This document shows positions 3,436 to 62,724 of a stretch of 64,000 bases of DNA, in pieces; within the stretch, counting starts at the first letter, position 1; the number at the start of each line of letters is the position of its first letter. A model generated the notes under the pieces. The model was given only the letters and a program-made list of their open reading frames with translations, was not told the origin of the DNA and ran no database searches. The DNA lies in contig JAUVHV010000002.1 in NCBI GenBank assembly GCA_030593065.1, positions 104,098 through 168,097 of the forward strand. The letters are read 5' to 3'. The position numbers and the translations under genes were made by a program. The stretch comes from Candidatus Omnitrophota bacterium (lineage in GTDB: Bacteria; Omnitrophota; Gorgyraeia; JABMRG01).

Positions 3436-5043
3436 CTAAAACAACCCTTTAATCTTACCATGGTTATCAGCAGTAATGTTACATGCTGCCGGTTTTTTAG
3501 GCAGCCCCGGTAAAAGCAGTATGTCACCGCAGACAGGAACAATAAAACCTGCGCCTGAAAATATCCTTATCTGGTGTATATTCAATTTCCATTCCTCAGG
3601 CCTGCCTTTCAAAAGGTGGTTATCAGATAAAGAAAACTGTGTCTTAGCAATATTGACAGCAAGCCTGTTCAAGCCAAGATCCTCTATAACCTTGAGGTCT
3701 TTCTTTGCCTGCAGACTAAAATTTACCCCTTTCCCACCGTATATTCTGGTAGATATAAGCTCTATCTTGCCCTTTATACTTAATTCTTCATTATAGAGAA
3801 GCTTAAACCCGCATTCGCCTTTTTTAAGCTGGCGCATGCATCCTTCTGCCAACTCTATCGCACCGCAGCCTCCTCTAGCAACAGCATCCGATATATAGCT
3901 CTCCACCCCAAGCTCCTGGCAACAGGCCTTTATCTGTTTAAGAGCCTTAGGTGGATCATTGGGAAATTTGTTTATCGCAACTATGGGTTCTATACCGAAA
4001 CACCTTATTATATTGATATGCTTCTTAAGATTAGGCAACCCATGCAGCCTCATAGCTCTACGAGAGACAACTATAACCGCCAGTTCCGGCCTTAATCTGC
4101 CTTGCCGGCATACAACATTAAAAAATTTCTCCGCACCGAGATCAGCGCCAAAACCACTTTCCGTTATTACATAATCCGCTAGTTTCAATCCCATAAGTAT
4201 TGACATAAGGCTATTTGCGCCATGGGCAATATTTGCGAAAGGCCCGCAATGAACAAAGGCGGGATTACCTTCTATCGTCTGGACAAGATTGGGCATAATA
4301 GCGTTAACCAGAAGCGCGCTCATTGAGCCAACAGCATTTAAGGTTTTAGGCGTAACAGGTTTCTTCTTCTTTGTAAAAGCAACTATCATACGTGAAAGCC
4401 TGTTTTGCAGATCCGCTATATTTCTGCTTAAGGCGAGGATTGCCATTGTTTCGGATGCGGCTATAATATCAAAGCCGCTCTCATAAGAAACTTTTTTGTC
4501 GATATTAAAACGTATCTTCCGAAGTGTCCTGTCACTTATATCTATGGTTCGCCGCAATAGTATATTGTTTATATCAATATTGAGCTTGTTATTAAAATAG
4601 ATACTGCTATCGAGCATGGCGCAAAGTAGGTTATTCGCTCCGGATACCGCATAACTATCACCTGTAAAATGGAGATTTATATCCTCCATTGGTATCACCT
4701 GGGAATATCCTCCGCCACAGGCGCCGCCCTTGATACCAAACATAGGCCCCAGTGAAGGTTCACGTAAACAGAGAAAAGCTTTTCTCTTCAATCTTCCGAA
4801 TGCCTGTGCCAGGCCTATAGCGGTCGAGGTCTTTCCTTCTCCATGTTTTGTAGGTGTTATAGAAGTGACAAGTATAAGTTTTCCATCGGGCTTGCTTTTT
4901 AATCTTGAGAGAAGTGAAGGGGATACTTTAGCTATATGGTTACCGTAAGGTATAAGTTCTTCATTCTTTATACCTGCGGATTTTGCTACCTCAGTTATCT
5001 GCTTCGGCTTTACACGCTGAGCTATCTCTATATCAGAAAGCAT
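3436..5043 (-). CDS. fhs: Formate--tetrahydrofolate ligase
   Basis: 535 aa; TPTKHGEGKTSTAIGL P-loop region; full-length FTHFS architecture. Confidence 0.92.
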   Translation of the reverse strand: MLSDIEIAQRVKPKQITEVAKSAGIKNEELIPYGNHIAKVSPSLLSRLKSKPDGKLILVTSITPTKHGEGKTSTAIGLAQAFGRLKRKAFLCLREPSLGPMFGIKGGACGGGYSQVIPMEDINLHFTGDSYAVSGANNLLCAMLDSSIYFNNKLNIDINNILLRRTIDISDRTLRKIRFNIDKKVSYESGFDIIAASETMAILALSRNIADLQNRLSRMIVAFTKKKKPVTPKTLNAVGSMSALLVNAIMPNLVQTIEGNPAFVHCGPFANIAHGANSLMSILMGLKLADYVITESGFGADLGAEKFFNVVCRQGRLRPELAVIVVSRRAMRLHGLPNLKKHINIIRCFGIEPIVAINKFPNDPPKALKQIKACCQELGVESYISDAVARGGCGAIELAEGCMRQLKKGECGFKLLYNEELSIKGKIELISTRIYGGKGVNFSLQAKKDLKVIEDLGLNRLAVNIAKTQFSLSDNHLLKGRPEEWKLNIHQIRIFSGAGFIVPVCGDILLLPGLPKKPAACNITADNHGKIKGLF

Positions 5044-9273: not shown

Positions 9274-10338
9274 TTACAGCCTTTCAATCCTTGCCTTTTT
9301 ATCCGCAACCATAAGCCCGGTTATTATCTCTTCCAGATCGCCGCCAAGTATGGCTTCTAATTTATGCAGCGTCAAACCTATCCTGTGATCAGTAATTCGC
9401 CTGTCTGGAAAATTATATGTTCTTATCTTCTCACTTCTATCACCAGTGCCAACCTGGCTTTTTCTATGCTTAGAGATCTTATCCGCGTGCTCCTGCCTTG
9501 CTTTATCGAAAATTCGCGAACGTAATACCTTCATCGCTTTTATTTTATTCTTTAGTTGTGAACGTTCATCCTGACATATAACAACTATATCTGTCGGAAT
9601 ATGGGTTATGCGTACAGCGGAATCTGTTGTATTTACGCTTTGCCCCCCGTGCCCACCTGAGCGGTATACATCCATACGTATATCCTTTGGGTCAATACTA
9701 ACATCTATCTCTTCAGCTTCAGGCAATACCGCGACAGTTACAGCAGACGTATGAATCCTGCCCTGTGACTCTGTAGTTGGTACACGCTGGACTCTATGGG
9801 TTCCGCTCTCATACTGAAATCTTTTGTAAACATCGCTGCCTTCTACGGCGAAGACCACTTCTTTTATACCACCTGCCTCTGAAGTCGATGTATTCATTAC
9901 ATCGACTTTCCACCCTCTGTTCTGCGCATATTTAGAATACATCCTGAAAAGATCCGCGGCAAATAGAGACGCTTCAAGGCCCCCTGTACCAGCGCGTATC
10001 TCCATTATTACATTACGATCTGCATCAGGGTCATCCGCTATCAGCATCTGTTCTAACTCGGATTTAAGTCTGCCAAGCTTAATCTCAAGCTCGCCTATTT
10101 CTGACTTTGCCAATTCCATAAAATCTGGTTCGTGTTTTTCAGCAAGCATCGACTCAAGCTTAGATTTCTCCTGTTCACATAAAAGATAATCATCGTATTT
10201 CTGCACTATAGAGGAGGTGGAAGATAGCTCTTTAGCATACCGTTGATAAAGAGTCCTGTCTTTCAAGACTTCGTGATCCGCTAAAAGCTTCTCTAGCTCT
10301 TCCGCGCGATTTTTTTTCCGTGATAGTGATTCAAACAT
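9274..10338 (-). CDS. prfA: Peptide chain release factor 1
   Basis: 354 aa; SGGHGGQSVN (GGQ) motif; RF1-type. Confidence 0.93.
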   Translation of the reverse strand: MFESLSRKKNRAEELEKLLADHEVLKDRTLYQRYAKELSSTSSIVQKYDDYLLCEQEKSKLESMLAEKHEPDFMELAKSEIGELEIKLGRLKSELEQMLIADDPDADRNVIMEIRAGTGGLEASLFAADLFRMYSKYAQNRGWKVDVMNTSTSEAGGIKEVVFAVEGSDVYKRFQYESGTHRVQRVPTTESQGRIHTSAVTVAVLPEAEEIDVSIDPKDIRMDVYRSGGHGGQSVNTTDSAVRITHIPTDIVVICQDERSQLKNKIKAMKVLRSRIFDKARQEHADKISKHRKSQVGTGDRSEKIRTYNFPDRRITDHRIGLTLHKLEAILGGDLEEIITGLMVADKKARIERL

Positions 10339-21385: not shown

Positions 21386-21394
21386 ACGCTCTCC

Positions 21395-30374: not shown

Positions 30375-30490
30375 GCATACCTCCTTTTAATATTACATTG
30401 TATATAAGTTTAAGTATTATATCATATAGCTACCACCTGCTCAAGCAAAATCGAGATTAATCCGCATTAACTCATAATTAAAGGTTACTA

Positions 30491-30900
30491 GCAGCCAGCT
30501 TTTGAGCAATTTCGCAGAAGCACAAAATTTTTCCCTGCGAGAAAATTTTGCTCCGTTTTTTTGCTCTCTCCCACTGCTATTTTACTTTGTAAAACAGCAG
30601 TGGTCCATGCCCGTTCGCAAAAAAGAGGTTCTGCTCCATTACTCAAAAAGCTGGCTTTCAGAACGGTTCTTAATTAAAACCACACTTGCAAAACTATGCC
30701 AAGGTTTGCTAACTAAGGGAGAGTTTTGTTGCAACTGGAGCGGGACTTTGGTGGTGCGAGCGGGCAAGGTTCGCCCTGATTAAGTCATATGCGAGAGCGA
30801 GCGCCAACTCGGAGTGAAATTCCCACGCTGGGGGAATTTCACGTTCCTGCGAAAGTTGCTACGAAACTCTCAGCTTAGATGAAGGTAGCGGATAAGGAAT
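30491..30900. repeat. Mosaic GC-rich intergenic repeat, copy A (modules shared with copies at 56296-56715 and 62512-62722)
   Basis: About 150 nt of 30700-30900 is the reverse complement of 56320-56530 at roughly 90% identity. Palindromes at 30520-30552 and 30814-30842 share arms and loop with the hairpin at 56401-56430. Confidence 0.8.
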
Positions 30901-30916
30901 CATAGATAACGTTTGA

Positions 30917-32836
30917 TTATGAGCTGACTGGAAGTTTCCTTCCGGCTTTATGTTCGTTTATGGTGTTTCGCAAGAGCCTGCAATAGAGGTCAAATCCTAC
31001 AGCGGCAATATATCCATGCTGTTGGGTCCCTAATATATTGCCGGCACCCCTTATCTGAAGGTCTTCCATAGCTATCTTAAAACCTGAACCCAGTTCTGTA
31101 AAACGTCCTACAGCCTTGAGCCTTCTCTTTGCGTCTCCTGCAAGCGGGTAATTCTTTGGCACCAGGCATATCGCGTAAGCTTTTATATTAAACCTGCCTA
31201 CCCTGCCTCTAAGCTGATAAAGATCTGCTAAACCAAACCTATCCGCGTGATTTATAATAATAGTATTTGCATTCGGTATATCTATACCTGATTCGATAAT
31301 AGTTGTAGAGACCAAGACATCTATTTCACCTTTTATAAACTGGAGCATTATCTTTTCAAGCTCTTTAGCCGGAATCTTACCGTGGGCAACAGAGATACGT
31401 ACACTCTCTCCCATAAGCGCCTTTAGTCCTAACACGATCTTCTCTATCCCCTTAATCCTATTATTCACAAAAAAGACCTGGCCTCGCCTTTTAAGCTCAC
31501 GCTCAATAGCTTCTTTAATCAGCTTATCGTTATATGAACTTATAATAGTCTTGATAGGAAGCCTGTCAAGGGGTGGTGTGTTGATTGCGGACATATCTCT
31601 TGCACCGGTAAGCGACATGTATAGCGTACGCGGTATAGGTGTAGCTGTCATTGTAAGGACATCTATAAGAAGCCTGATCTTTTTCAATTTCTCTTTTGCC
31701 TTTACGCCAAAACGCTGTTCCTCATCTATAATTACGAGCCCGAGATCCTTAAATACTATATCATCCGACAAAAGCCTGTGTGTTCCTATTACAATATCGA
31801 CAGAACCCTCTTTCAACCCCTTCAAAACCTCTTTCTGTTCAGATTTTGTCTTAAAACGTGAAAGCATCTGTATATTTACAGGAAACTCCTTCATTCTTTC
31901 GCAAAATGTATTATAATGCTGTTCCGCCAATATAGTAGTAGGAACTAATATACCAACCTGCTTGTTATCCATTACAGCCTTGAATGCGGACCTTAAAGCA
32001 ACTTCCGTCTTACCATAACCTACGTCACCACATAAGAGCCTATCCATAGGCTTTGGCTTTTCCATATCAGAGATTACGTCAGAAACGGCCTTTGCCTGAT
32101 CGATCGTATCTCTATAAGGAAAACTTTCTTCCAGTTTATATTGCCAATCAGTATTTTTGGAGAAAGCAAAACCCTTGAGTTTCATTCGATCTGCCTGCAT
32201 CTGAAGCAGTTCCATTGCATAAGAGGCTGCTATCTTCTTGGTCTTCTGTTTTAATCTTTTCCAGGAACCTGTTCCCAGCTTGCTCAGTCTTGGAACACAC
32301 TTATAAAAACTTAAATATTTTTGTATAAGATTTATCTCCCCGACAGGCAAATACAACTTATCTCTATCCGCGTACTCGATTAGAATATAATCTTTCTCAT
32401 GGCCACTCTTTTCCTTTATTTTCTTTATGCCTTTGTATATACCTATACCATAATCAATATGTACGACTAAATCGCTAATCATTATATCAACAAAGTTATC
32501 TATAGGCACCTCTTCTCCCATACCGTGAAATATAGCGGGCTTGGCAGAAGAGTGTAATGTTTTTCTTGGAAGTATTATTACCATCTGGTGGACAGAAGTA
32601 ATCTCAGAAGTGACCAGGCTAAAAGATCGTATAGAATGAACCTTATCCTGAAAAAGCTCTAATCGCACAGGAGACTCAAAGCCGCTGGGAAAGATATCGA
32701 TAATCCCTCCCCTGTGCGCAAAGTCTCCTTCCTGCGCTACAAAATCTGTTATCTTATAACCCAGCAGGATTAAATCTTTAAGAAGCGGTTCTTTCTCCTG
32801 GTTTTGATTGGTATAAAGCTTGGCCGATTTAAACAT
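30917..32836 (-). CDS. mfd: Transcription-repair coupling factor (Mfd) homolog; short form lacking the N-terminal UvrB-homology region (D1a/D2 side) and the C-terminal D7
   Basis: 639 aa. Contains RGGIIDIFP...RLELF (UvrB-like motif), a CarD/TRCF RNAP-interaction domain (VVHIDYGIGIYKG...KLYLPVGEINL), SF2 helicase motifs (GDVGYGKTEVALR; DEEQRFGV; TATPIPRTL; QLRGRVGR) and a TRG region. Only 45 bp separate it from argS. Confidence 0.75.
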   Translation of the reverse strand: MFKSAKLYTNQNQEKEPLLKDLILLGYKITDFVAQEGDFAHRGGIIDIFPSGFESPVRLELFQDKVHSIRSFSLVTSEITSVHQMVIILPRKTLHSSAKPAIFHGMGEEVPIDNFVDIMISDLVVHIDYGIGIYKGIKKIKEKSGHEKDYILIEYADRDKLYLPVGEINLIQKYLSFYKCVPRLSKLGTGSWKRLKQKTKKIAASYAMELLQMQADRMKLKGFAFSKNTDWQYKLEESFPYRDTIDQAKAVSDVISDMEKPKPMDRLLCGDVGYGKTEVALRSAFKAVMDNKQVGILVPTTILAEQHYNTFCERMKEFPVNIQMLSRFKTKSEQKEVLKGLKEGSVDIVIGTHRLLSDDIVFKDLGLVIIDEEQRFGVKAKEKLKKIRLLIDVLTMTATPIPRTLYMSLTGARDMSAINTPPLDRLPIKTIISSYNDKLIKEAIERELKRRGQVFFVNNRIKGIEKIVLGLKALMGESVRISVAHGKIPAKELEKIMLQFIKGEIDVLVSTTIIESGIDIPNANTIIINHADRFGLADLYQLRGRVGRFNIKAYAICLVPKNYPLAGDAKRRLKAVGRFTELGSGFKIAMEDLQIRGAGNILGTQQHGYIAAVGFDLYCRLLRNTINEHKAGRKLPVSS

Positions 32837-48575: not shown

Positions 48576-49781
48576 TTACGCAGATTGTGTTTGCAGAGAT
48601 TTATGATAATTGACGAAACGGCCAATATATTCATCAGGCCCGTCAATGAGCATCTTTACATATGTATCTGTATAACCTGTCAGCTTAGCTGTATCCTTAT
48701 CTCTTGTTGTCTCGATCAATATTCTCTGATTCTTGTTATATGATGACAATTTAAACTGTTCCGCAAATTTATCAGTTATTACTTTTAATCGCTTGTACCT
48801 ATCACTTTTCTCCGAAGGTGAGACTGTCTCTTTGACATCAAAGGCCTTTGTGCCTTTACGCGGGCTGTAAGTAAAGATGTGAGTTCTTGAGGGTTTTATA
48901 CTTTTTATTATTTTAAGCGTATTATTAAAATTCTTATCTCTCTCTTGGGGAAAACCTATTATGACATCTGTTGTTATCGCTACTCCAGGTATTTTGGACC
49001 TAATAAATTTTATCCTGTTTACAAATTCCTTGCTTGTATACCTGCGATTCATCTTGCGGAGGATATCATTATCGCCGCTTTGCAAAGGGATATGAAAGTG
49101 ATGGCATATCTTTTCAGGCAGCGCCATCTTATCGATAAGTTCGTCTGTAACATCCGGAAGCTCTATAGAACTTAAGCGTATTCTGAAATCCCCATCTAAA
49201 CCAGCTATCTCTTTGATAAGCCGTGTAAGCGTTATACCTGTACCGAGATCTTTACCAAAATCACCAAGGCATATTCCTGTTAATATCAATTCCCTGTAAT
49301 TTTTACTAATCAGGTTACCTGCTTCTTTCAATATCTCTTCCATGTTCCTGCTTCTCGATCTTCCCCTTACATATGGCACCTTGCAATATGAACAGAAGTT
49401 ATTACAGCCATCCTGGATCTTTACAAATGCCTTTGCATGGCCTTTAAAATATGATATCCCCTTACCGTCATTCAGCTTATCAGAATTATTAAGAACCCTG
49501 ATCTTTGAATCTATAGCCCCAATAGTATCCGCGTCTTTTTCGATATAACATCCTGCCGCTATAATCTCCGCTTCAGGATTTTCCCTGATAAACCGACGTA
49601 AAATTTCACGGCATTCCTTATCTGCCTTGGCAGTTACGGTACAGGTATTTACAATACAGAGATCCGCCTTTTCTTTACCCCCTGCCTCCTTATAACCCGC
49701 CAAAATCAACCTCTCTCTTATAACCTGGGTTTCGTACTGGTTTACCTTACATCCCAATGTCTTTATTTTAAATCTTTTCAT
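48576..49781 (-). CDS. Radical SAM methylthiotransferase, MiaB/RimO/MtaB family
   Basis: About 401 aa from MKRFKIKTLGCKVNQYE (UPF0004 domain); radical SAM CxxxCxxC (CNNFCSYC); TRAM-like C-terminus. Likely start at the internal Met (49781). Confidence 0.85.
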   Translation of the reverse strand: MKRFKIKTLGCKVNQYETQVIRERLILAGYKEAGGKEKADLCIVNTCTVTAKADKECREILRRFIRENPEAEIIAAGCYIEKDADTIGAIDSKIRVLNNSDKLNDGKGISYFKGHAKAFVKIQDGCNNFCSYCKVPYVRGRSRSRNMEEILKEAGNLISKNYRELILTGICLGDFGKDLGTGITLTRLIKEIAGLDGDFRIRLSSIELPDVTDELIDKMALPEKICHHFHIPLQSGDNDILRKMNRRYTSKEFVNRIKFIRSKIPGVAITTDVIIGFPQERDKNFNNTLKIIKSIKPSRTHIFTYSPRKGTKAFDVKETVSPSEKSDRYKRLKVITDKFAEQFKLSSYNKNQRILIETTRDKDTAKLTGYTDTYVKMLIDGPDEYIGRFVNYHKSLQTQSA

Positions 49782-49814
49782 TGTTAATCCATTTTCCGCC
49801 AATATATAAGAGAA

Positions 49815-49891
49815 TGGCGCGCCTGACAGGATTCGGACCTGTGACACCCAGTTCCGGAAACTGGTGCTCTATCCAGCTGAGCTACAGGCGC
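49815..49891 (-). tRNA. tRNA-Arg (anticodon CCG)
   Basis: Minus-strand cloverleaf folded by hand: acceptor GCGCCUG/CAGGCGC, D-arm UAGCUCAGCUGGAUAGAGC, anticodon arm CCAGU-UUCCGGA-ACUGG, T-arm ACAGG-UCCGAAU-CCUGU, 3' CCA encoded. Position 55 reads C rather than the usual U. Confidence 0.8.
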
Positions 49892-51452: not shown

Positions 51453-53693
51453 ATGAAAAAATTGCCCTATATGGCTGCTTTCCTGGTGGGCGTAAATGCC
51501 CTATTAAGCCAGGTAATGATTATAAGAGAGCTTCTGGTAAATTTTTCCGGCAATGAACTCTCTATGGGAATTATTATTGCCACATGGCTTGTTGGCGCGG
51601 CAATAGGCAGCCTTGTCTTAGGGCGCTATTTTATTGAAAAGATAAAAACACCCACATATACCTTTTCCATACTACTTTTAGTAATATCAGCGCTAATTCC
51701 AATCAGCATCTTCCTGTCCAAAACCGTAAGATACATGTTCCAAATACCCATATATGAGACTCTGGGGCCATTACATATGCTTTCGATATGCGCGATACTG
51801 CTCTTGCCTCTATCCGGGCTGCTTAGTTTCTGCTTTATATTATCCTGCAAAATGCTAAAAATCGCTGTCTCAAAAAATAATACCCCTGGTACCACTTATA
51901 TGCTGGAAGCGCTTGGAGCAACCGCGGCCGGCGCGGTCTTCACATTCCTGCTTATAATATACTTTAATCATTTCCAGATAGCCTTAGGCCTAATATTTAT
52001 AAATATTCTATTTGCCTCATACATTGCTTGCAGAAAAAAGTTTTTCCTCTATCTCCTGCTGTCAATTTTTATTGCTGTTTTTTCGGCAAACAGCATAAAA
52101 TGGCTGCAAAAAATATCAGAAACACTGCAATGGCACCCCTATGAAGTGGTATATTACGCAAGTTCTCCATATGGCAATATAAGCGTCACAAAATCAGCCG
52201 ATACATTCAATGTTTACGAAAACGGCGCCTTGCTATTTACCACTCAGGATGAGGTCTTTAATGAAAACTTTTCGCATCTAGTAATGTTACAGCACTCTGC
52301 TCCAAAGAATGTGCTTCTTTTAGGCAACGGCATAGGTGGAATATTAAGGCAGATACTTAAACATAACCCCCAATCTTTAACATATCTCCAACTCGATTCG
52401 GAAATTTTAAGAGCAAGTAAAAAGTTCCTGCCGCAGAAAGAGAAAAATATTCTTTCAGACCCGCGCCTTAAAATAATACATGAAGATGCGGGTTTTTTTA
52501 TAAAAAGGACAAAAGAGAGGTTTGACCTGATAATAATAAATATGCCGGATCCCGTTACGCTTAGCATTAACCGTTTTTACACAAAGGAGTTCTATGAAAT
52601 AGCCCGTTCCCATCTTAAAAAAGGCGGTATACTGGCTACGCGCATCTCATCCAAAGAGTCTATAATAAGCAATGAGCTGGCCAGGTATAACGCATCTGCT
52701 TACAATACCCTTAAGAACGTATTTCACTATGTAGAGTGCATACCCGGTGAAAACCTTATCTTCATAGCTTCCGATGACTTAAATATTACAACAGATAGGC
52801 CTGAAATCTTAGTAGAAAGATTCAGCAAAAGAGCTATCAAGACAGATTTCCTTACAGAATACCATATAAGAGACAGATACTATCCGGACATGCTAAACTA
52901 TCTCGCAGGCCAGCTTGAAAAAGGGCGTAGAGATGCCGGTATCAATACAGATTTTCATCCTATCTGCTTCTACTACGGCTTTATCCTCTGGAACATTAAA
53001 TTTCAGCCGCATATAGCGGGGCTGTTTAATTCTATTGTACAGATAAACATCTTAGGCATAATCTGTATAATGATTCTGTTTTTTTTATGGGGGCTTTTTG
53101 CAATCAGATTTAAAAAAGATTCTGCGGTCTATTTTATACGTTCCGCGATAGCTGTAAGCGGAGCAGCTGGTATTACTCTCGAAATTATAATATTACTCTC
53201 TTTTCAAATAAGTTATGGGTACGTATATAGCAAGGTAGGATTTTTAATAGCGCTCTTTATGCTGGGGCTGGCATCGGGAAGCTATATCATAAATCAGAGA
53301 TTATATAAATTCAAAAATCTGCACAATCTGCTCTGCGGGATAATACTGATATTCTGCTTGTATATAACCTTAGCGCCTCTGATTATAAGGTTTGCGGCAT
53401 CGATACCCCTGCAAGCTTCTGAGTATATATTCTATCTTATGATACTTATAACCGGTATGTTTACGGGATGCCAGTTTCCTGTTGCAGTGGCATTACTGCA
53501 AAAAAGATATTCGCCAAGCTATTCTGCGTCGATTATATGGGGATCTGATCTTCTGGGCGCGGCAACAGGTGTACTTATATCAAGCCTTATAATCATTCCT
53601 GTTCTCGGAATGTTTACTGCCTGCTTCATAGCCGCGACATTCTGCGCAATAAGCCTTATCCTGCTTCTTTTTCGCCAAAGACTTCAGCGCTAA
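51453..53693 (+). CDS. Fused polytopic membrane / spermidine synthase-like (class I SAM-dependent aminopropyltransferase fold) protein
   Basis: 746 aa; about 7 N-terminal TM segments, a central spermidine-synthase-like core (LLLGNGIGG...DLIIINMPDP...), and further C-terminal TM segments. Confidence 0.7.
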   Translation: MKKLPYMAAFLVGVNALLSQVMIIRELLVNFSGNELSMGIIIATWLVGAAIGSLVLGRYFIEKIKTPTYTFSILLLVISALIPISIFLSKTVRYMFQIPIYETLGPLHMLSICAILLLPLSGLLSFCFILSCKMLKIAVSKNNTPGTTYMLEALGATAAGAVFTFLLIIYFNHFQIALGLIFINILFASYIACRKKFFLYLLLSIFIAVFSANSIKWLQKISETLQWHPYEVVYYASSPYGNISVTKSADTFNVYENGALLFTTQDEVFNENFSHLVMLQHSAPKNVLLLGNGIGGILRQILKHNPQSLTYLQLDSEILRASKKFLPQKEKNILSDPRLKIIHEDAGFFIKRTKERFDLIIINMPDPVTLSINRFYTKEFYEIARSHLKKGGILATRISSKESIISNELARYNASAYNTLKNVFHYVECIPGENLIFIASDDLNITTDRPEILVERFSKRAIKTDFLTEYHIRDRYYPDMLNYLAGQLEKGRRDAGINTDFHPICFYYGFILWNIKFQPHIAGLFNSIVQINILGIICIMILFFLWGLFAIRFKKDSAVYFIRSAIAVSGAAGITLEIIILLSFQISYGYVYSKVGFLIALFMLGLASGSYIINQRLYKFKNLHNLLCGIILIFCLYITLAPLIIRFAASIPLQASEYIFYLMILITGMFTGCQFPVAVALLQKRYSPSYSASIIWGSDLLGAATGVLISSLIIIPVLGMFTACFIAATFCAISLILLLFRQRLQR

Positions 53694-56205
53694 ATATATA
53701 TATATCACACCCCTTGTTTTTCCAGCTGTCTCGAGATAATCCTGCCTTATGCATACACAGAGAATCCATAAACTCTTCTCTGCTCCAGCCTGTCTCAACA
53801 GCTACCTGCGGAAGATACACACCACTTTTGAACCCGCTTCTTATCAGCACACCGTGTTTACCCATAATAATCTCATCAGGGCTATCTATCTTCTTAAGCG
53901 GTGAAAGAACCGATACCTCTATATCTATATCCTCAAGTTCTTTTGGGCCTACAGGCGAAAATCTCGGATCCTGTGTACCTGCCTGTATAGCCATGTCACT
54001 AACTGTCTGATAGAGCGGCCCCTTACCTATAATATTACCTATACATCCTCGCAAATGCCCATTCTTATGCAACGTGACAAATACCCCCATCTCTTTGTTT
54101 AAAATCGGATTATCCTCATTGATAACCAGCTTCTCGCCATTATCTACATAGGCCTTGAGCGTCTCTCTTGCAATCTGAAGAAGGCGTTTTTTCTCTTCCG
54201 CATTAAGTAGTTCTTCCATATTTTTCTCCACTTTATGTTTTTCTATTACCTGATGATCATCGGCCAATAATTTATAAATTACAGCAGAGGCATATCCCAC
54301 AACAGCGCTGCCATCACCTGTTACATCAGCTGATGTCGTGTATCTGAGTATACTGATCTTATCAGCTCCCAACTTACGCGCTGCCATCATAGCACCGATT
54401 ATAGCTGTGCTCCCGCATGGCTTCTCTTTACCCGGCATTTTGGAAAGCTTTAAAAACAGCTCTTCAGGATTAAATTTCTTGATCTCATCCAGGACAGCGG
54501 AATCTATAATACGTGCTCTCTTATCAGAATTGTAATGAGACATATCACTGCTGGCAATAATAACTATATCTTTTCTCTCTCCTATCACGGCGTAGAGCGC
54601 GTCACGTAAAAGCGTACATGTATCATATGAGCTGTTGCCTGTCAGGATAAGAACTATCCTTGCCTTAGGCAGTGATTCCTGCACAAATGGTATCTGGGTC
54701 TCTGTTGAATTTTCATTTAAAAATGGCTTGTTATAATAATTTACGTTTTTATTAAAAGAGAAGAGTCTCTGGGTTACATCCCTATCTATGGCCACCTTTC
54801 CAAGCGGAGTAAGATAAAAATCCTTATCAAGTACGGCTATCCCTTCGAAAGAATGGCGGTGGCTTGGAGCAACAATAATTGCTGTATTAAATCCTTTATC
54901 TTTAATAGCCTTGAAGCCGTAACCCGCGGCTTCTCCAGAGTACCTAAAACCTGCATGCGGTGATATAATAGCAATTATATCACCAGCTATCAGTTCAGGT
55001 TCTGCATTACCGATAAAATCGCCTACTACTTCCTTAAGTACCGCGGGATCTTTGGGATAAAAAGAGCCTGTAAGCGACGGCTCCTGTATATCTTCCGCAT
55101 CTTTCCATATACCTGCAATCTCTTTTTGGCAATATTTGCATTTTCCGCTTTCTATATTGTTTTCCACAACATTATACCCTAATCGTTTTATCAAAAGTTT
55201 TTTGCAACCAGGGCAATATGTAGATTCACCCTTGCTACCTGGTATATTACCGATATAAACATAATTAAGCCCCGCGGATACAGCTATATTATACGCGGCT
55301 TTCAGGGCAGATACCGGTGTCGGAGAAATATTCTTAAGCTTATACATTGGCCAGAAACGTGAGATATGCAAAGGTGTATCAGGGCCAAGATTTTCCTTTA
55401 TCCATAGGCATGTCTCTTTTATATAATCAGGATTATCATTTATAGTAGGTATTAGAAGATAAGTAATCTCAAGCCACACGCCTTCTTCCTTCAATATCCG
55501 TAAAGTGCGCAGTACATCTTCTCTGTTCCCAAGGCAGAATTCATTATAGAATCTATCTGAACCCTTGAGATCTACATTGGCGGCATCCATATATTCGCAC
55601 AACTGCCTTAAAGGTTCTTCACTTATAAAACCGCATGAATGCATTACATTCATTATGCCTGCCTGATGCGCCAATTTTGCTGTATCTAACATATATTCAT
55701 AAAAGATTGTGGGTTCAGTATAGGTATATGCGATACTTGGGCAGTTATTCGTATTAGCAAGCATCACTACTCTTTCAGGCGGTACATCTTCATAAGGAAC
55801 ATCTTCAGGCCAGGCTTGAGATATCTGCCAATTCTGGCAGAACTTACATTCAAGGTTACACCCTGCGGTTGCTATGGAGAATGATTTCGTACCCGGAAGA
55901 ACATGGAATAATGGCTTCTTTTCAATAGGGTCAACATGAAGAGCGCATGGCTTTGCATATACAAGGCTATATAGCACTCCATCCCTGTTCTCTCTCACCC
56001 GACAGAAACCTCTCTTCTTATTCGGAATAATACATTTGCGAGGGCATAACAGGCAACCCACTCTCTTATCATCCAGTCTCTGGTAATAAAGCGCTTCTTT
56101 CAGTTCCGGTCTTTGGGCTAAAACATTCGAAGCAAGATATGATAATGATTGGCATAACAGGAGTATCGCGACAAGAATTGACACAGATATAAATATCTTT
56201 TTCAT
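53656..56205 (-). CDS. AmmeMemoRadiSam system triple fusion: radical SAM enzyme (AmrS) + Memo-like protein (AmrB) + AMMECR1-domain protein (AmrA), with N-terminal hydrophobic anchor
   Basis: 849 aa uninterrupted ORF. AmrS part: CPRKC...GFC N-terminal Cys cluster plus CNLECKFCQNW (Cx3Cx2C). Middle CPGCKK...CKYC zinc-ribbon-like linker. Memo part: IISPHAGFRYSGEAAGYGF. AMMECR1 part: HLRGCIGNI...DPRF. N-terminus MKKIFISVSILVAILLLC is hydrophobic. Confidence 0.82.
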   Translation of the reverse strand: MKKIFISVSILVAILLLCQSLSYLASNVLAQRPELKEALYYQRLDDKRVGCLLCPRKCIIPNKKRGFCRVRENRDGVLYSLVYAKPCALHVDPIEKKPLFHVLPGTKSFSIATAGCNLECKFCQNWQISQAWPEDVPYEDVPPERVVMLANTNNCPSIAYTYTEPTIFYEYMLDTAKLAHQAGIMNVMHSCGFISEEPLRQLCEYMDAANVDLKGSDRFYNEFCLGNREDVLRTLRILKEEGVWLEITYLLIPTINDNPDYIKETCLWIKENLGPDTPLHISRFWPMYKLKNISPTPVSALKAAYNIAVSAGLNYVYIGNIPGSKGESTYCPGCKKLLIKRLGYNVVENNIESGKCKYCQKEIAGIWKDAEDIQEPSLTGSFYPKDPAVLKEVVGDFIGNAEPELIAGDIIAIISPHAGFRYSGEAAGYGFKAIKDKGFNTAIIVAPSHRHSFEGIAVLDKDFYLTPLGKVAIDRDVTQRLFSFNKNVNYYNKPFLNENSTETQIPFVQESLPKARIVLILTGNSSYDTCTLLRDALYAVIGERKDIVIIASSDMSHYNSDKRARIIDSAVLDEIKKFNPEELFLKLSKMPGKEKPCGSTAIIGAMMAARKLGADKISILRYTTSADVTGDGSAVVGYASAVIYKLLADDHQVIEKHKVEKNMEELLNAEEKKRLLQIARETLKAYVDNGEKLVINEDNPILNKEMGVFVTLHKNGHLRGCIGNIIGKGPLYQTVSDMAIQAGTQDPRFSPVGPKELEDIDIEVSVLSPLKKIDSPDEIIMGKHGVLIRSGFKSGVYLPQVAVETGWSREEFMDSLCMHKAGLSRDSWKNKGCDIYIFSAEVFGEKEAG

Positions 56206-56295
56206 GGTTGTATTTATTATACCACCTTAGACAGGATTTCCAAAAAGAAAAAATCACCACATCACTCTGCGCATCAACTCACAAAAAATATCATC

Positions 56296-56715
56296 TATGA
56301 TCTCTTCTGCCTTCTCTAAGCTGAGAGTTTCGCTGCAACTTCCTCAGGAGCGACCGAGGACGAAATGTCCAAGGGAGTGCCGAGAGCTCCGCGAACGACC
56401 GTGAAATTTTTCCCTGCGAGAAAATTTCACTCCGAGTTGGCGCTCGCTCTCGCGTAGAACTCAATCAGGGCGAACCATGCCCGCTCGCACCACCAAGGTC
56501 CCGCTCCAGTTACTACAAAACTCTCTCTTAGTTAGCAAATCTAAATATGGCTTTCGGGCATTTCGTCATCGGTAGTTTCGCGGAGGATAGCTGGTAAGAA
56601 TATCTCTTATGCCTTTGCCTTTTAGCAGCGCTTTGGATTTTTTTGCTACGAACGTAAATAGACGGCAAAAATACCTGCGCTGCGAAGGCAGAAGGCAGAA
56701 GAGATTGCAGGTGAT
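56296..56715. repeat. Mosaic GC-rich intergenic repeat, copy B
   Basis: 56320-56530 is the reverse complement of copy A (30700-30900) with an extra roughly 57-nt module. 56560-56710 is the reverse complement of 62512-62640 in copy C at roughly 85% identity. Perfect 10-bp hairpin at 56401-56430. Confidence 0.8.
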
Positions 56716-56740
56716 ATTTTTTGGTCAATACGTAATAATC

Positions 56741-57412
56741 TCATGCTAAATACGCGTGTATAGACATAAAACGCTGGATAAAACGTTTCTCTGTGCCGGC
56801 GCCTAATGATGTATTGTAATAACGTTTCCATAATACCGCCAAACCGGATGGATTTGACGGTACAATATTTATACCCTTGCGCTCAAATATCTCTTTATAA
56901 ACAAGCAGTGAAATAAGAGCTGCAAAATCATAATCATCCGCGCAAAGATTTCTAAGTTTCTCCCTGTCCATCACGGCAAGGCTACTCCATGCAAGCCTGC
57001 CTTTGGTAACTTTGGCAAAGAGCGGTATTAACTTCTCGCGTTTTGCTATTTTTTCGCTACCCTTGATAGAATATGTTACATATCTATGCATAACTCCATA
57101 TACAGTTTCACCGATAACCTGGTATGGCCCGCTTCCGTTTCTGGATACCCCTGAATATCTATCTAAAAAATTGCTCTCTACAGCGGCTGTTCCAAGAAGC
57201 AGCATAACCCAGGAAGTTTTTTGAGTTTCACCCATATCAGGAAAGACAAGGTCAATGATTCTCCTGACCCTCTTATTGTGGTCCTGATAATTTCTGAATT
57301 GTTCTCGGTTAAAACCGGTATTGATAGGAATGGCACAATCTCCTACTGAAAAAGAGAAAACAGCGTTTAGAGCAATGGTAATAATAATCCATATAACCGT
57401 CGGCTTTAACAT
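56741..57412 (-). CDS. Exported protein with a lytic transglycosylase (SLT)-like motif pattern
   Basis: 223 aa; signal/TM N-terminus; GTAAVESNF ... GPYQVIGETV ... YYNTSLGAG resembles the ES / G(L/P)MQ / YN.G motifs of SLT domains. Weak. Confidence 0.4.
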   Translation of the reverse strand: MLKPTVIWIIITIALNAVFSFSVGDCAIPINTGFNREQFRNYQDHNKRVRRIIDLVFPDMGETQKTSWVMLLLGTAAVESNFLDRYSGVSRNGSGPYQVIGETVYGVMHRYVTYSIKGSEKIAKREKLIPLFAKVTKGRLAWSSLAVMDREKLRNLCADDYDFAALISLLVYKEIFERKGINIVPSNPSGLAVLWKRYYNTSLGAGTEKRFIQRFMSIHAYLA

Positions 57413-57599
57413 CGGCTATAATCCTTTATTTTTAAATACTTTTTAAAACTAAATAGTAAGTATGAATAAAAAAAGAGCCTTTACTTAGACTTATCCCTTT
57501 AAATTAAATATGCCATACAATGCGGGTAAAATCAAGGGGCCAGAGCATAAAATAATAATATTTTATGCTCTGGCCCTGAATAAATATGTCAAGTGTTTC

Positions 57600-57908
57600 T
57601 TAAACAGTTCTGCCTATCCAGTCGAGATAATCCTGGCTGCCTTCAGATATCGTTATACTTATTATCTCTGGCGTATCATAGTTATGAAGTTTTTTAACCA
57701 TGTCTTTCAATTTTTTAAAATGGCTTCTCCTGGTTTTCGCTATCAATAGATGTTCACCAGATACCTCTTTCTTTCCTTTCCATATAAAAATAGACTTGAT
57801 ACCCGGTATAATATTTACGCAGGCAGCTAATTTAGAGTCAACGAGTTCATTCGCTATTCTTTCCGCGTCTTCCTCTGACGATACTGTAATAAAAACCATT
57901 ATATACAT
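57600..57908 (-). CDS. cutA: Divalent-cation tolerance protein CutA
   Basis: 102 aa; MYIMVFITVSSEEDAERIANELVDSKLAACVNIIPGIKSIFIWKG is characteristic of CutA1. Confidence 0.85.
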   Translation of the reverse strand: MYIMVFITVSSEEDAERIANELVDSKLAACVNIIPGIKSIFIWKGKKEVSGEHLLIAKTRRSHFKKLKDMVKKLHNYDTPEIISITISEGSQDYLDWIGRTV

Positions 57909-62465: not shown

Positions 62466-62511
62466 TTAGTAAATATAAATTCAATAACAAAATACTCAGA
62501 AAAGCCAATAT

Positions 62512-62722
62512 AATCTCTTATGCTTTCTGCCTTCGCAGCGCAGGTATTTTTGCCGTTTATTTACACTCAGCGCAAAAAAATCCAATGCGCTGCTAAAAGG
62601 CAAAGGCATAAGAGGTGTTCTTATCTGATAGCTACTGAGGACAAAATATCCGAGCGACCAAAGGAAGTCCCTTTAGGCAGAAGTACCGAGAGCTTCGCGA
62701 ACGGTGCAACAAAACTCTTATG
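62512..62722. repeat. Mosaic GC-rich intergenic repeat, copy C
   Basis: 62512-62640 is the reverse complement of 56560-56710. 62640-62705 resembles 56345-56400 (CCGAGAGCT(C/T)CGCGAACG core). The tail GCAACAAAACTCT matches the A/B module end. Confidence 0.8.
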
Positions 62723-62724
62723 AG

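Follow-up and report, generated by a model that had tools for sequence, protein, structure and literature searches.

The stretch of DNA analysed here (the window) comprises 64,000 nucleotides (nt) of contig JAUVHV010000002.1, from a Candidatus Omnitrophota bacterium, and contains three intergenic regions (A, B and C, table 1) that share repeated sequences. An earlier note on this DNA had described the repeats as modules of one GC-rich family, placed directly upstream of operon starts. The repeats are real and all three loci do lie upstream of operons, but in regions A and B a near-consensus promoter is placed between the repeat and the gene, and the modules belong to two unit families plus fragments, not to one element. 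The three loci are mosaics of these two undescribed non-coding families, namely a core of ~155 nt with a three-armed fold, present in three copies in the window, and a hairpin unit of ~108 nt (H), present in two copies.

Table 1. Positions of the repeat units, their fragments and the adjoining promoters in the window.
Feature	Position	Strand	Description
Spacer A	30375-30916		flanked by mfd-like helicase gene and ppiC
Promoter of ppiC-surA-pdxA operon	30416..30444	-	sigma-70-type, TTGAGC-17-TATAAT, with TG; outside the repeat
Conserved alpha 3' tail	30470..30491	-	CTAGTAACCTTTAATTATGAGT on the minus strand
Core copy 1 (alpha)	30492-30657	-	166 nt; P1, P2, three-way junction with P3/P4 arm and P5
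Spacer between the divergent (5'-to-5') cores of region A	30658..30717	.	60 nt; contains palindrome AGAACGGTTCT
Core copy 2 (beta)	30718-30872	+	155 nt; antisense to all neighbouring genes
3' extension of core copy 2	30873..30910	+	resembles an H arm; stops 7 nt from the mfd stop codon
Spacer B	56206-56740		flanked by gene for hypothetical protein of 223 amino acids (aa) and AmmeMemoRadiSam fusion gene
Promoter of AmmeMemoRadiSam gene	56216..56243	-	TTGGAA-16-TATAAT, with TG; outside the repeat
Composite insertion	56282..56723	.	442 nt; plus-strand order: left inverted repeat, beta core with insert, linker, H, right inverted repeat
Core copy 3 (beta)	56318-56530	-	interrupted by insert of ~48 nt
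H copy 1	56599-56708	.	model R2, 105.8 bits on plus strand, 53.4 bits on minus strand
Spacer C	62466-62724		flanked by uvrA-like gene and TPR-exbB-exbD-tonB operon
H copy 2	62510-62619	.	orientation opposite to H copy 1; model R2, 106.9 bits on minus strand
Decayed beta-type remnant	62630..62720	+	variant of the region B insert module and one P1 strand (TGCAACAAAACTCTT)

Units and fragments in the three regions

The sharing of modules among the loci was confirmed by blastn. Positions 30702-30846 of region A matched the reverse complement of B 56397-56542 (87.7% identity over 146 nt, E 2e-47), and region C (62512-62623), in reverse complement, matched B 56595-56706 (90.2% over 112 nt, E 3e-39). 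A repeat-finding program (find_repeats) recovered these arms as well. Region C also carries a variant of a B module (62682-62703 against 56376-56397, 91%), and regions A and B share a hairpin in direct orientation (30525-30555 against 56404-56434, 31 nt, 93.5%). As had been noticed, the hairpins at 30520-30552 and 56401-56430 have a common centre, TCCCTGCGAG, and two pair-preserving stem differences. The palindrome at 30814-30842, which reuses the same arms, is helix P5 of core copy 2. The blastn E-values, together with fold z-scores of -6.0 to -7.3 and the covariation across 19 copies described below, indicate that the similarity is not due to chance. The high G+C content attributed to the modules holds for cores of the beta subfamily (54–55%, against 39.8% for the window), but not for the alpha core (43%) and H (42–44%).

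Core copy 1 was detected over its full length by the covariance model of the core, R1 (cmsearch, 128 bits, E 1.5e-29), and its RNA fold (-71.4 kcal/mol) had a z-score of -7.3 relative to shuffled sequence. It is 88% identical to positions 7774-7959 of L002, a non-orthologous locus (L numbers denote related contigs from metagenomes and metagenome-assembled genomes (MAGs), and L021 is a further locus of the window's own genome). The conserved tail of this core recurs after alpha copies at other loci (L002, L013) and after an alpha remnant in L022. Core copy 2 scored 145.8 bits (E 2e-34, fold z -6.0), and region A therefore holds two diverged cores head to head, 52% identical in the model alignment. 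The 3' extension of copy 2 and the left terminal inverted repeat of the region B composite are homologous, and blastn aligned B 56274-56349 with A 30927-30845 (75.9% over 83 nt).

Core copy 3 is 82% identical to copy 2 in the model alignment and 87.7% by blastn. Its insert (56350-56397, plus strand) separates P5 from the 3' strands of P2 and P1, and an inverted copy of the insert module is found at 56556-56590. The R1 match of this copy (56372-56526, 95.1 bits, E 9e-22) misplaced the 3' strand of P1 into the insert; the true 3' strands of P1 and P2 lie at 56318-56349, as obtained from pairwise alignment with the other regions. H copy 1 sits 68 nt to the 5' side of core copy 3 (core sense direction), and the whole composite is bounded by inverted repeats of 34 nt (56282-56315 and 56690-56723, 88% complementary) and has a fold z-score of -6.5. 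The beta-type remnant beside H copy 2 in region C is missing the conserved junction, the P3/P4 arm and P5, and gave no R1 match in cmsearch.

Fold and strand polarity of the core

In the core, a closing stem of 18 base pairs (bp), P1, is followed by a 3-nt bulge, by P2 (6 bp) and by a three-way junction carrying the P3/P4 arm and P5. The internal loop of the arm is conserved in sequence (UGCGAGCGGGCAWGG opposite GAGCGAGCA, possibly including a tandem G·A), and the arm ends in a hairpin that varies. P5, an AU-rich hairpin with a GC tip, corresponds to the hairpin flagged in the earlier note. The two strands of P1 covary between copies, and no single terminal sequence is kept.

A covariance model had been suggested as a check on compensatory changes, and such changes were found. 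RNAalifold gave an identical 53-pair structure from either strand for 13 copies, with 32 pairs doubly changed. The R1 model recovered 19 full or nearly full cores in the window and 12 further loci (75–178 bits). In the model alignment of these 19 copies, 94.3% of base-pair positions pair, compared with 40–48% when the 3' partners were shifted by 1–3 columns, and 41 of the 53 pairs are changed on both sides. The covariation score was 0.556, against 0.10–0.13 in the shifted controls, and none of 500 shuffles matched the observed paired fraction, the number of pairs changed on both sides or the covariation score. The alpha and beta cores of the window share the fold at just 52–56% identity. The fold of the core is thus maintained by compensatory change.

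The fold also has a polarity. On the inferred strand, G·U pairs outnumber A·C oppositions 56 to 12 in the model alignment, and in MAFFT alignments the ratio is 33 to 9 on the inferred strand and 10 to 21 on the other. The consensus energy was -68.4 kcal/mol on the inferred strand versus -59.4 kcal/mol. P1 too shows the G·U polarity, and the polarity is the same whether a copy is sense or antisense to its neighbours. Because this asymmetry is independent of gene orientation, it indicates that selection acts on a single-stranded form of the core whose polarity is fixed. The conserved U·G pair and the possible tandem G·A in P3 may be RNA-like features. For the H unit, 13 of 31 pairs have compensatory changes, but the ratio of G·U to A·C is 7 to 5, and there is no asymmetry.

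Three other structural or coding interpretations were considered and rejected. Inspection of the alignment showed no consistent covariation for a pseudoknot between the P5 loop and the junction strands, and the tandem G·A has the wrong geometry for a kink-turn, the bulge not being adjacent. In some copies of the gamma subfamily the complementary strand has a Shine-Dalgarno-like motif followed by ATG, but a 1-nt insertion or deletion shifts the frame, and one copy has no ATG.

Dispersal, turnover and genomic setting

A 22-nt word of the shared hairpin was found in one genome contig, L002, from a MAG labelled uncultured Planctomycetia. A degenerate pattern of the most conserved stretch matched 18 metagenome contigs, 13 of which have a homologous element of ~155 nt; the matches in L006, L007, L016, L019 and L020 were discarded as chance matches in coding sequence. 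Beyond the 19 cores of the model alignment, further cores were found in L023 and L031. At least 13 copies of H were recovered with its model (R2), and the unit is present in many of the same foreign contigs as the cores. The earlier note had held that a lack of further copies and of covariation would point to fragments of a single ancient duplication; the 19 cores and the 41 of 53 doubly changed pairs clearly show otherwise.

Clustering of the pairwise identities among cores gave four subfamilies, which are conserved across genomes at 78–94% identity. The alpha subfamily includes window copy 1, L002-7774, L013-168 and L010-1832, and the beta subfamily window copies 2 and 3, L017, L012-5967, L018 and L002-4005. 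Six metagenome copies make up gamma. The delta subfamily consists of L010-2009 and L013-409, together with the more distant L012-6158 (65–70% identical, in a cluster of its own).

Head-to-head (5'-to-5') pairs of cores from different subfamilies occur at four loci, namely region A (alpha/beta), L010 and L013 (both alpha/delta) and L012 (beta/delta), and the spacers of the latter three loci measure 41–76 nt. Where H adjoins a core (region B of the window, L004, L009, L011, L014, L018, L023 and L031), it lies on the 5' side of the core in 8 of 8 cases, at a distance of 28–100 nt, and the relative orientation of the two units is the same in 7 of 8. Lone H units are present in region C of the window and in L021, L025, L014, L009, L011 and L030. 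Relative to their neighbours, 9 cores are sense, 9 antisense and 1 of unknown orientation. The neighbours are unrelated housekeeping genes (dapF/dapA, mnmG, ftsW, hppA, mnmA, a heptosyltransferase gene and others).

Comparison of orthologous sites showed extensive turnover. In the window, the mfd-ppiC spacer measures 542 nt and holds a beta core (antisense) and an alpha core (sense). In L022 (PpiC 90% identical) it is 239 nt long, and just the two outermost strands of the pair are left, fused to each other, as if the interior of a quasi-palindrome had been deleted. L023 (PpiC 86%) has a beta core and H in this spacer, the contig stopping within the core, and in L025 (PpiC 77%) and L029 (73%) the spacer is empty (94 nt). 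The spacer downstream of gene 56741..57412 contains H and a beta core in the window, and a truncated antisense alpha core with a delta core in L010. In L031 it has a degenerate beta-like core and H, the composite being inverted as a whole, and in L030 it is empty (83 nt), the flanks aligning with the window exactly up to the 34-nt inverted repeats that bound 56282-56723.

Two further sites differ in the same way. The apbE-hppA spacer has a lone H in the window genome (L021) and an alpha core in L002. At the junction of the polysaccharide-deacetylase gene and tsaD, ~175 nt with an H unit are present in L025, and in the window (21386-21394) and L022 the genes are 9 nt apart, the site being empty. 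Decayed copies are also found, namely the right part of region C, a deletion variant in L010 and the insertion-bearing core of region B.

Several other differences were observed at or near these sites. In L002 (3423-4235), a beta core and a MarR-family gene lie between mnmA and the next gene, and in the window genome (L021 15534-15555) these two genes abut, so that core and regulator gene differ together. In L030, the spacer orthologous to region C (4719-4935, between uvrA and the TPR gene) holds a different element of ~190 nt with perfect inverted repeats of ~30 nt (AAGGGGACGGTCCTAAAGGGGACACCCTTAC), so that the same intergenic hot spots collect several repeat families. L023 has a 280-nt insertion between the deacetylase gene and tsaD (9405-9686), in which a 47-nt sequence occurs twice in direct orientation, together with two hairpins; it shows no relation to core or H, and no copy of it was found in the window or the other loci. 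Directly after mfd, L022 (9766-9809) carries a perfect palindrome with a 22-bp stem (AAGAACGGTTCTCAAGCACGAG/CTCGTGCTTGAGAACCGTTCTT), the outer motif of which, AGAACGGTTCT, recurs at 30661-30671 in the inter-core spacer of region A. The contigs L001, L023, L024 and L026, which come from separate short-read assemblies of this organism and its relatives, stop inside or beside repeat units upstream of ppiC. Such contig ends are consistent with repeats that are multi-copy at the k-mer scale.

The repeats had been thought not to look like tRNA, transfer-messenger RNA (tmRNA), SRP RNA or 5S RNA, and the searches agreed with this. For the whole window, Rfam 15 at the gathering threshold gave only tRNA-Arg, and ARAGORN likewise found tRNA-Arg (49815-49891) alone, with no tRNA or tmRNA in the repeats. 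With E up to 10, regions A and B gave only noise in Rfam 15, with no match to HEARO or any other family, and with E up to 5 the five loci with the best cores gave only weak miRNA-like matches on the H hairpin. The patterns of both units had no match in IMG/VR viral contigs, and blastn found none in PLSDB plasmids or INPHARED phages. A full-text literature search with conserved sequence words and for Omnitrophota repeats returned only unrelated primer matches and general reviews.

A scan for sigma-70-like promoters within 80 nt upstream on the sense strand gave a hit for 1 of 18 cores, versus 3 of 18 on the control side, and no conserved sigma-70 match was seen inside or beside H. Intrinsic terminators were not found in regions A and B. 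Genes for TnpB, IscB, TnpA or a DEDD recombinase adjoin none of the ~21 cores. No gene for a RAYT (Y1 HUH) transposase was seen in the window or the related contigs, which is the sequence examined and not a genome-wide search, and no transposase, integrase, reverse transcriptase or Cas gene lies within the window or beside those copies whose flanks were checked. The region B composite has its 34-nt terminal inverted repeats, and H is a near-palindrome, but both the H ends and P1 of the core covary between copies.

All but one of the ~59 long open reading frames (ORFs) of the window are on the minus strand, and the GC skew of the plus strand is negative around 29.5–32 kb. The extreme strand bias and the negative skew suggest that the entire window lies on one replichore, with its genes co-oriented with replication. 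PpiC homologues at 59–67% identity carry the name Candidatus Omnitrophota. Between the MAG that supplied L002 and L025 and the window genome, protein identity is 94% for HppA, 77% for MnmA and 77% for PpiC. The promoter of ppiC-surA-pdxA is kept in L022, L023 and L025 (the last with an empty site), and that of the AmmeMemoRadiSam gene in L010, L031 and L030 (the last again with an empty site).

Some features of the neighbouring genes were also recorded. The radical-SAM, Memo and AMMECR1 domains form a single ORF of 849 aa in the window (53656-56205), and in L030, L031 and L032 there are two genes instead, radical SAM (371–420 aa) followed by Memo-AMMECR1 (502–519 aa). The mfd-like gene (30917-32836) encodes 639 aa with UvrB-interaction, CarD/TRCF RID and helicase domains; its product has 636–650 aa in all relatives, far below the typical size of Mfd. 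The start of the listed ORF 48576-49847, a radical-SAM methylthiotransferase, overlaps tRNA-Arg(CCG) at 49815-49891, so the true start must be further downstream. Between cutA (57600..57908) and the gene for the 223-aa protein there is a perfect 19-bp hairpin with a 6-nt loop (57535-57578). It may be terminator-like, yet it has no T-run, and its weak score with the core model is that of a generic hairpin only.

Origin of the units and their relation to known repeats

The units are best read as a new family of interspersed structured non-coding repeats, lineage-specific in uncultured Omnitrophota-like bacteria. Their dispersal, mosaic arrangement, occurrence in both orientations, turnover and decay, their lack of genes and their position at the edges of transcription units all support this. 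A mobile repeat of the MITE (miniature transposable element with inverted repeats) or REP kind had been among the candidates of the earlier note, and the multiple copies, the mosaic, both orientations and the presence or absence at orthologous sites agree with that proposal. A classical cut-and-paste MITE is not supported, because the flanking direct repeats are of chance length and the terminal stems covary instead of keeping a transposase-binding sequence.

We lean towards the view that these are non-autonomous repeats that spread by way of a single-stranded form of one polarity, most likely RNA, that selection acts on this form, and that the copies decay or are reshuffled. Cores and H would then be elements of the REP-BIME, ERIC or bcr1 kind, mobile or recombining but not autonomous. 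The selected strand may be RNA made from source copies or by read-through or, less likely, single-stranded DNA formed during mobilisation. After insertion, copies would decay, or recombination between the many inverted segments could reshuffle them. Individual copies, those of the window included, would mostly be passengers, or at most stable RNA structures located where transcription units end.

Several points weigh against this view. Target-site duplications, which had been named as a feature to look for at the borders, did not exceed chance: the longest flanking direct repeat averaged 4.39 nt for 18 cores and 4.38 nt for 13 H units, compared with 4.17 nt for random sites. The flanks of the region B composite (TTGAC and TGAGT) show no duplication, and a possible TAAGG duplication at the H insertion in L025 was not counted, as no inverted ends lie behind it. 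No candidate mobilising enzyme was seen at any locus examined. Related contigs totalling ~158 kb yielded no more than a full core in L031 and a partial one in L023, and recombination and deletion could also produce the turnover. Alpha copies at non-orthologous loci are 88% identical, compared with 83% for hppA and 77% for mnmA at the DNA level in the same genomes. Such high sequence conservation and the conserved junction nucleotides suggest a function of the folded strand, more than passive junk would need. Finally, several of the 19 copies are linked by the relatedness of their organisms or by orthologous position, and the counts of compensated positions therefore overstate the number of independent events, and the model alignment is biased toward structure. 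The shifted control preserves the relatedness and yet fails, and the independent MAFFT alignments agree with the fold.

The alternative that keeps most weight, although we consider it unlikely, is that the cores are multi-copy genes for trans-acting stable small RNAs (sRNAs) of ~155 nt. The alpha to delta subfamilies would be paralogues, expressed from non-canonical or unrecognised promoters of their own and trimmed to P1, with H as an accessory or promoter module. The earlier note had also listed sRNA genes, and the fold, being strand-specific regardless of the orientation of the neighbours, is what such genes would show, as is an RNA-like architecture, with its three-way junction and conserved junction sequence, its conserved U·G pair and the possible tandem G·A. 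Processed stable RNAs typically have paired 5' and 3' ends, as the core does. The maintenance of the subfamilies across genomes at 78–94% identity, and the position of H on the 5' side in 8 of 8 cases, with a shared relative orientation in 7 of them, also agree with it. The proposal is weakened by the promoter scan, since the 1 of 18 cores with a sigma-70-like promoter did not exceed the 3 of 18 on the control side, though neighbouring genes in this lineage carry promoters close to consensus. Regions A and B showed no intrinsic terminators, the spacing between H and core varies (28–100 nt), and the divergent pairs leave just 41–76 nt to fit two promoters. Nor are the loci conserved, as seen from the remnant in L022 and the empty sites in L025 and L030.

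A somewhat more doubtful proposal is that the 155-nt unit represents a new class of functional RNA (a ribonucleoprotein scaffold, a guide or bridge RNA, or a ribozyme) that drives or licenses its own spread as a non-autonomous element. Selection on this bacterial repeat family would in that case work on the RNA and not by way of DNA ends bound by protein. The junction UGCGAGCGGGCAWGG / GAGCGAGCA, with its possible tandem G·A, would then be a candidate active or protein-binding site.

A reading of the units as the non-coding RNA component of a mobile element that depends on RNA, for example an ORF-less IS200/IS605 element with a TnpB/IscB guide scaffold or an IS110 element with its bridge RNA, seems improbable; the protein would act in trans, and H and core would be the two ends. 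Such an element would account for the lack of target-site duplications at insertions, for the site that is precisely empty in a relative (L030), and for the fixed H-to-core polarity, which points to a composite whose left and right ends differ. It would also be compatible with integrated copies that have no promoter. HEARO/IscB RNAs are structured RNAs with strong covariation and many ORF-less copies, and the core resembles them in these respects. However, 0 of ~21 cores lie beside a TnpB, IscB, TnpA or DEDD recombinase gene, and there was no Rfam match to HEARO or other families even with E up to 10. P1 pairs the extreme ends and leaves no obvious guide segment, and the internal loops are conserved, unlike variable programmable loops. 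The 9 to 9 orientation among co-oriented genes shows no bias, which argues against lagging-strand-biased insertion.

It is very unlikely that the three regions are cis-regulatory leaders, riboswitch-like RNAs or operators for ppiC-surA-pdxA, AmmeMemoRadiSam and TPR-exbBD-tonB, as had also been suggested. All three loci are upstream of operons, GC-rich and structured, but in regions A and B the units lie upstream of the promoters and not within leaders, and of the window's three cores one runs antisense. Elsewhere, units lie beside unrelated genes, in one orientation or the other, the overall count being 9 sense and 9 antisense. Relatives retain the operons and their promoters without the units. 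The strand asymmetry of the core further argues against a purely double-stranded DNA operator. The idea that the similarity is the residue of a single old local duplication, or consists of chance palindromes without any wider family, has a negligible probability, for although just three loci are visible in the 64-kb window, no fewer than 12 other contigs, from different metagenomes, carry homologous units, and the covariation and E-values exclude chance.

The closest counterpart among known repeats is found in the Bacillus cereus group. According to the summary in PMC3184786, bcr1 is ~155 bp long, has a non-conserved distribution, is transcribed, and keeps its RNA structure by compensatory changes; it is flanked by 5-bp direct repeats (Klevan et al. 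2007; Kristoffersen et al. 2011). By that description, bcr1 and the core are alike in length (~155), in being non-coding, intergenic and dispersed, in varying among relatives, in having a stable multi-helix structure with compensatory changes and in including some decayed copies, but the core has no direct repeats comparable to the 5-bp repeats of bcr1. The three-way junction with conserved sequence, the several subfamilies and the companion hairpin are found with the core and not with bcr1. The two belong to different phyla, and there is no evidence of sequence relatedness.

The REP/BIME repeats and REPIN doublets of Proteobacteria resemble the present units in being GC-rich relative to their surroundings, in forming mosaic alternating clusters with specific linkers and common inverted doublets, in lacking target-site duplications and in lying at the ends of transcription units. 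REP sequences are, however, simple hairpins of ~35 nt with a GTAG-type motif and a link to RAYT, whereas the units described here measure 108 and 155 nt and the core is branched. ERIC (IRU), Correia, RUP and BOX repeats share with them a length of 100–160 nt, an intergenic location in either orientation and a variable copy number and occupancy. ERIC and MITE-like structured repeats fold as RNA and affect mRNA stability or processing (PMC3184786). In repeats of the ERIC, Correia, RUP and BOX type, the terminal inverted repeats are conserved and TA or other target sites are duplicated, whereas in the core the terminal stem covaries, duplications are absent and the fold has strand polarity.

HEARO/IscB RNAs and TnpB guide scaffolds are, like the core, covarying RNAs with dispersed copies that have no adjacent ORF and no target duplication. 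Unlike them, the core has no Rfam match, no adjacent nuclease or transposase gene and no apparent guide, and its ends are paired. Classical MITEs are likewise small, non-coding and multi-copy, with filled and empty orthologous sites. The present family differs from bcr1, REP/BIME and ERIC in its branched core, whose junction sequence is conserved, its polarity, the subfamilies shared among genomes, the H partner of fixed polarity and the absence of target duplications.

These results bring to a poorly known candidate phylum two structured non-coding families that are well supported and absent from Rfam 15. They caution against annotating GC-rich spacers of this kind as riboswitches or leaders, and the repeats explain why assemblies of these genomes break at such spots. 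With its strand-specific covariation, conserved junction, shared subfamilies, lack of target duplications and lack of a nearby enzyme, the core offers a good test of how repeats of the REP, ERIC and bcr1 type spread, and of whether selection acts on them as RNA. Should the RNA have an activity of its own, the core would represent a new kind of RNA-based mobile element, and it would be highly interesting if the junction turned out to mediate the spread of these units, as an active site or as a site of specific protein binding.

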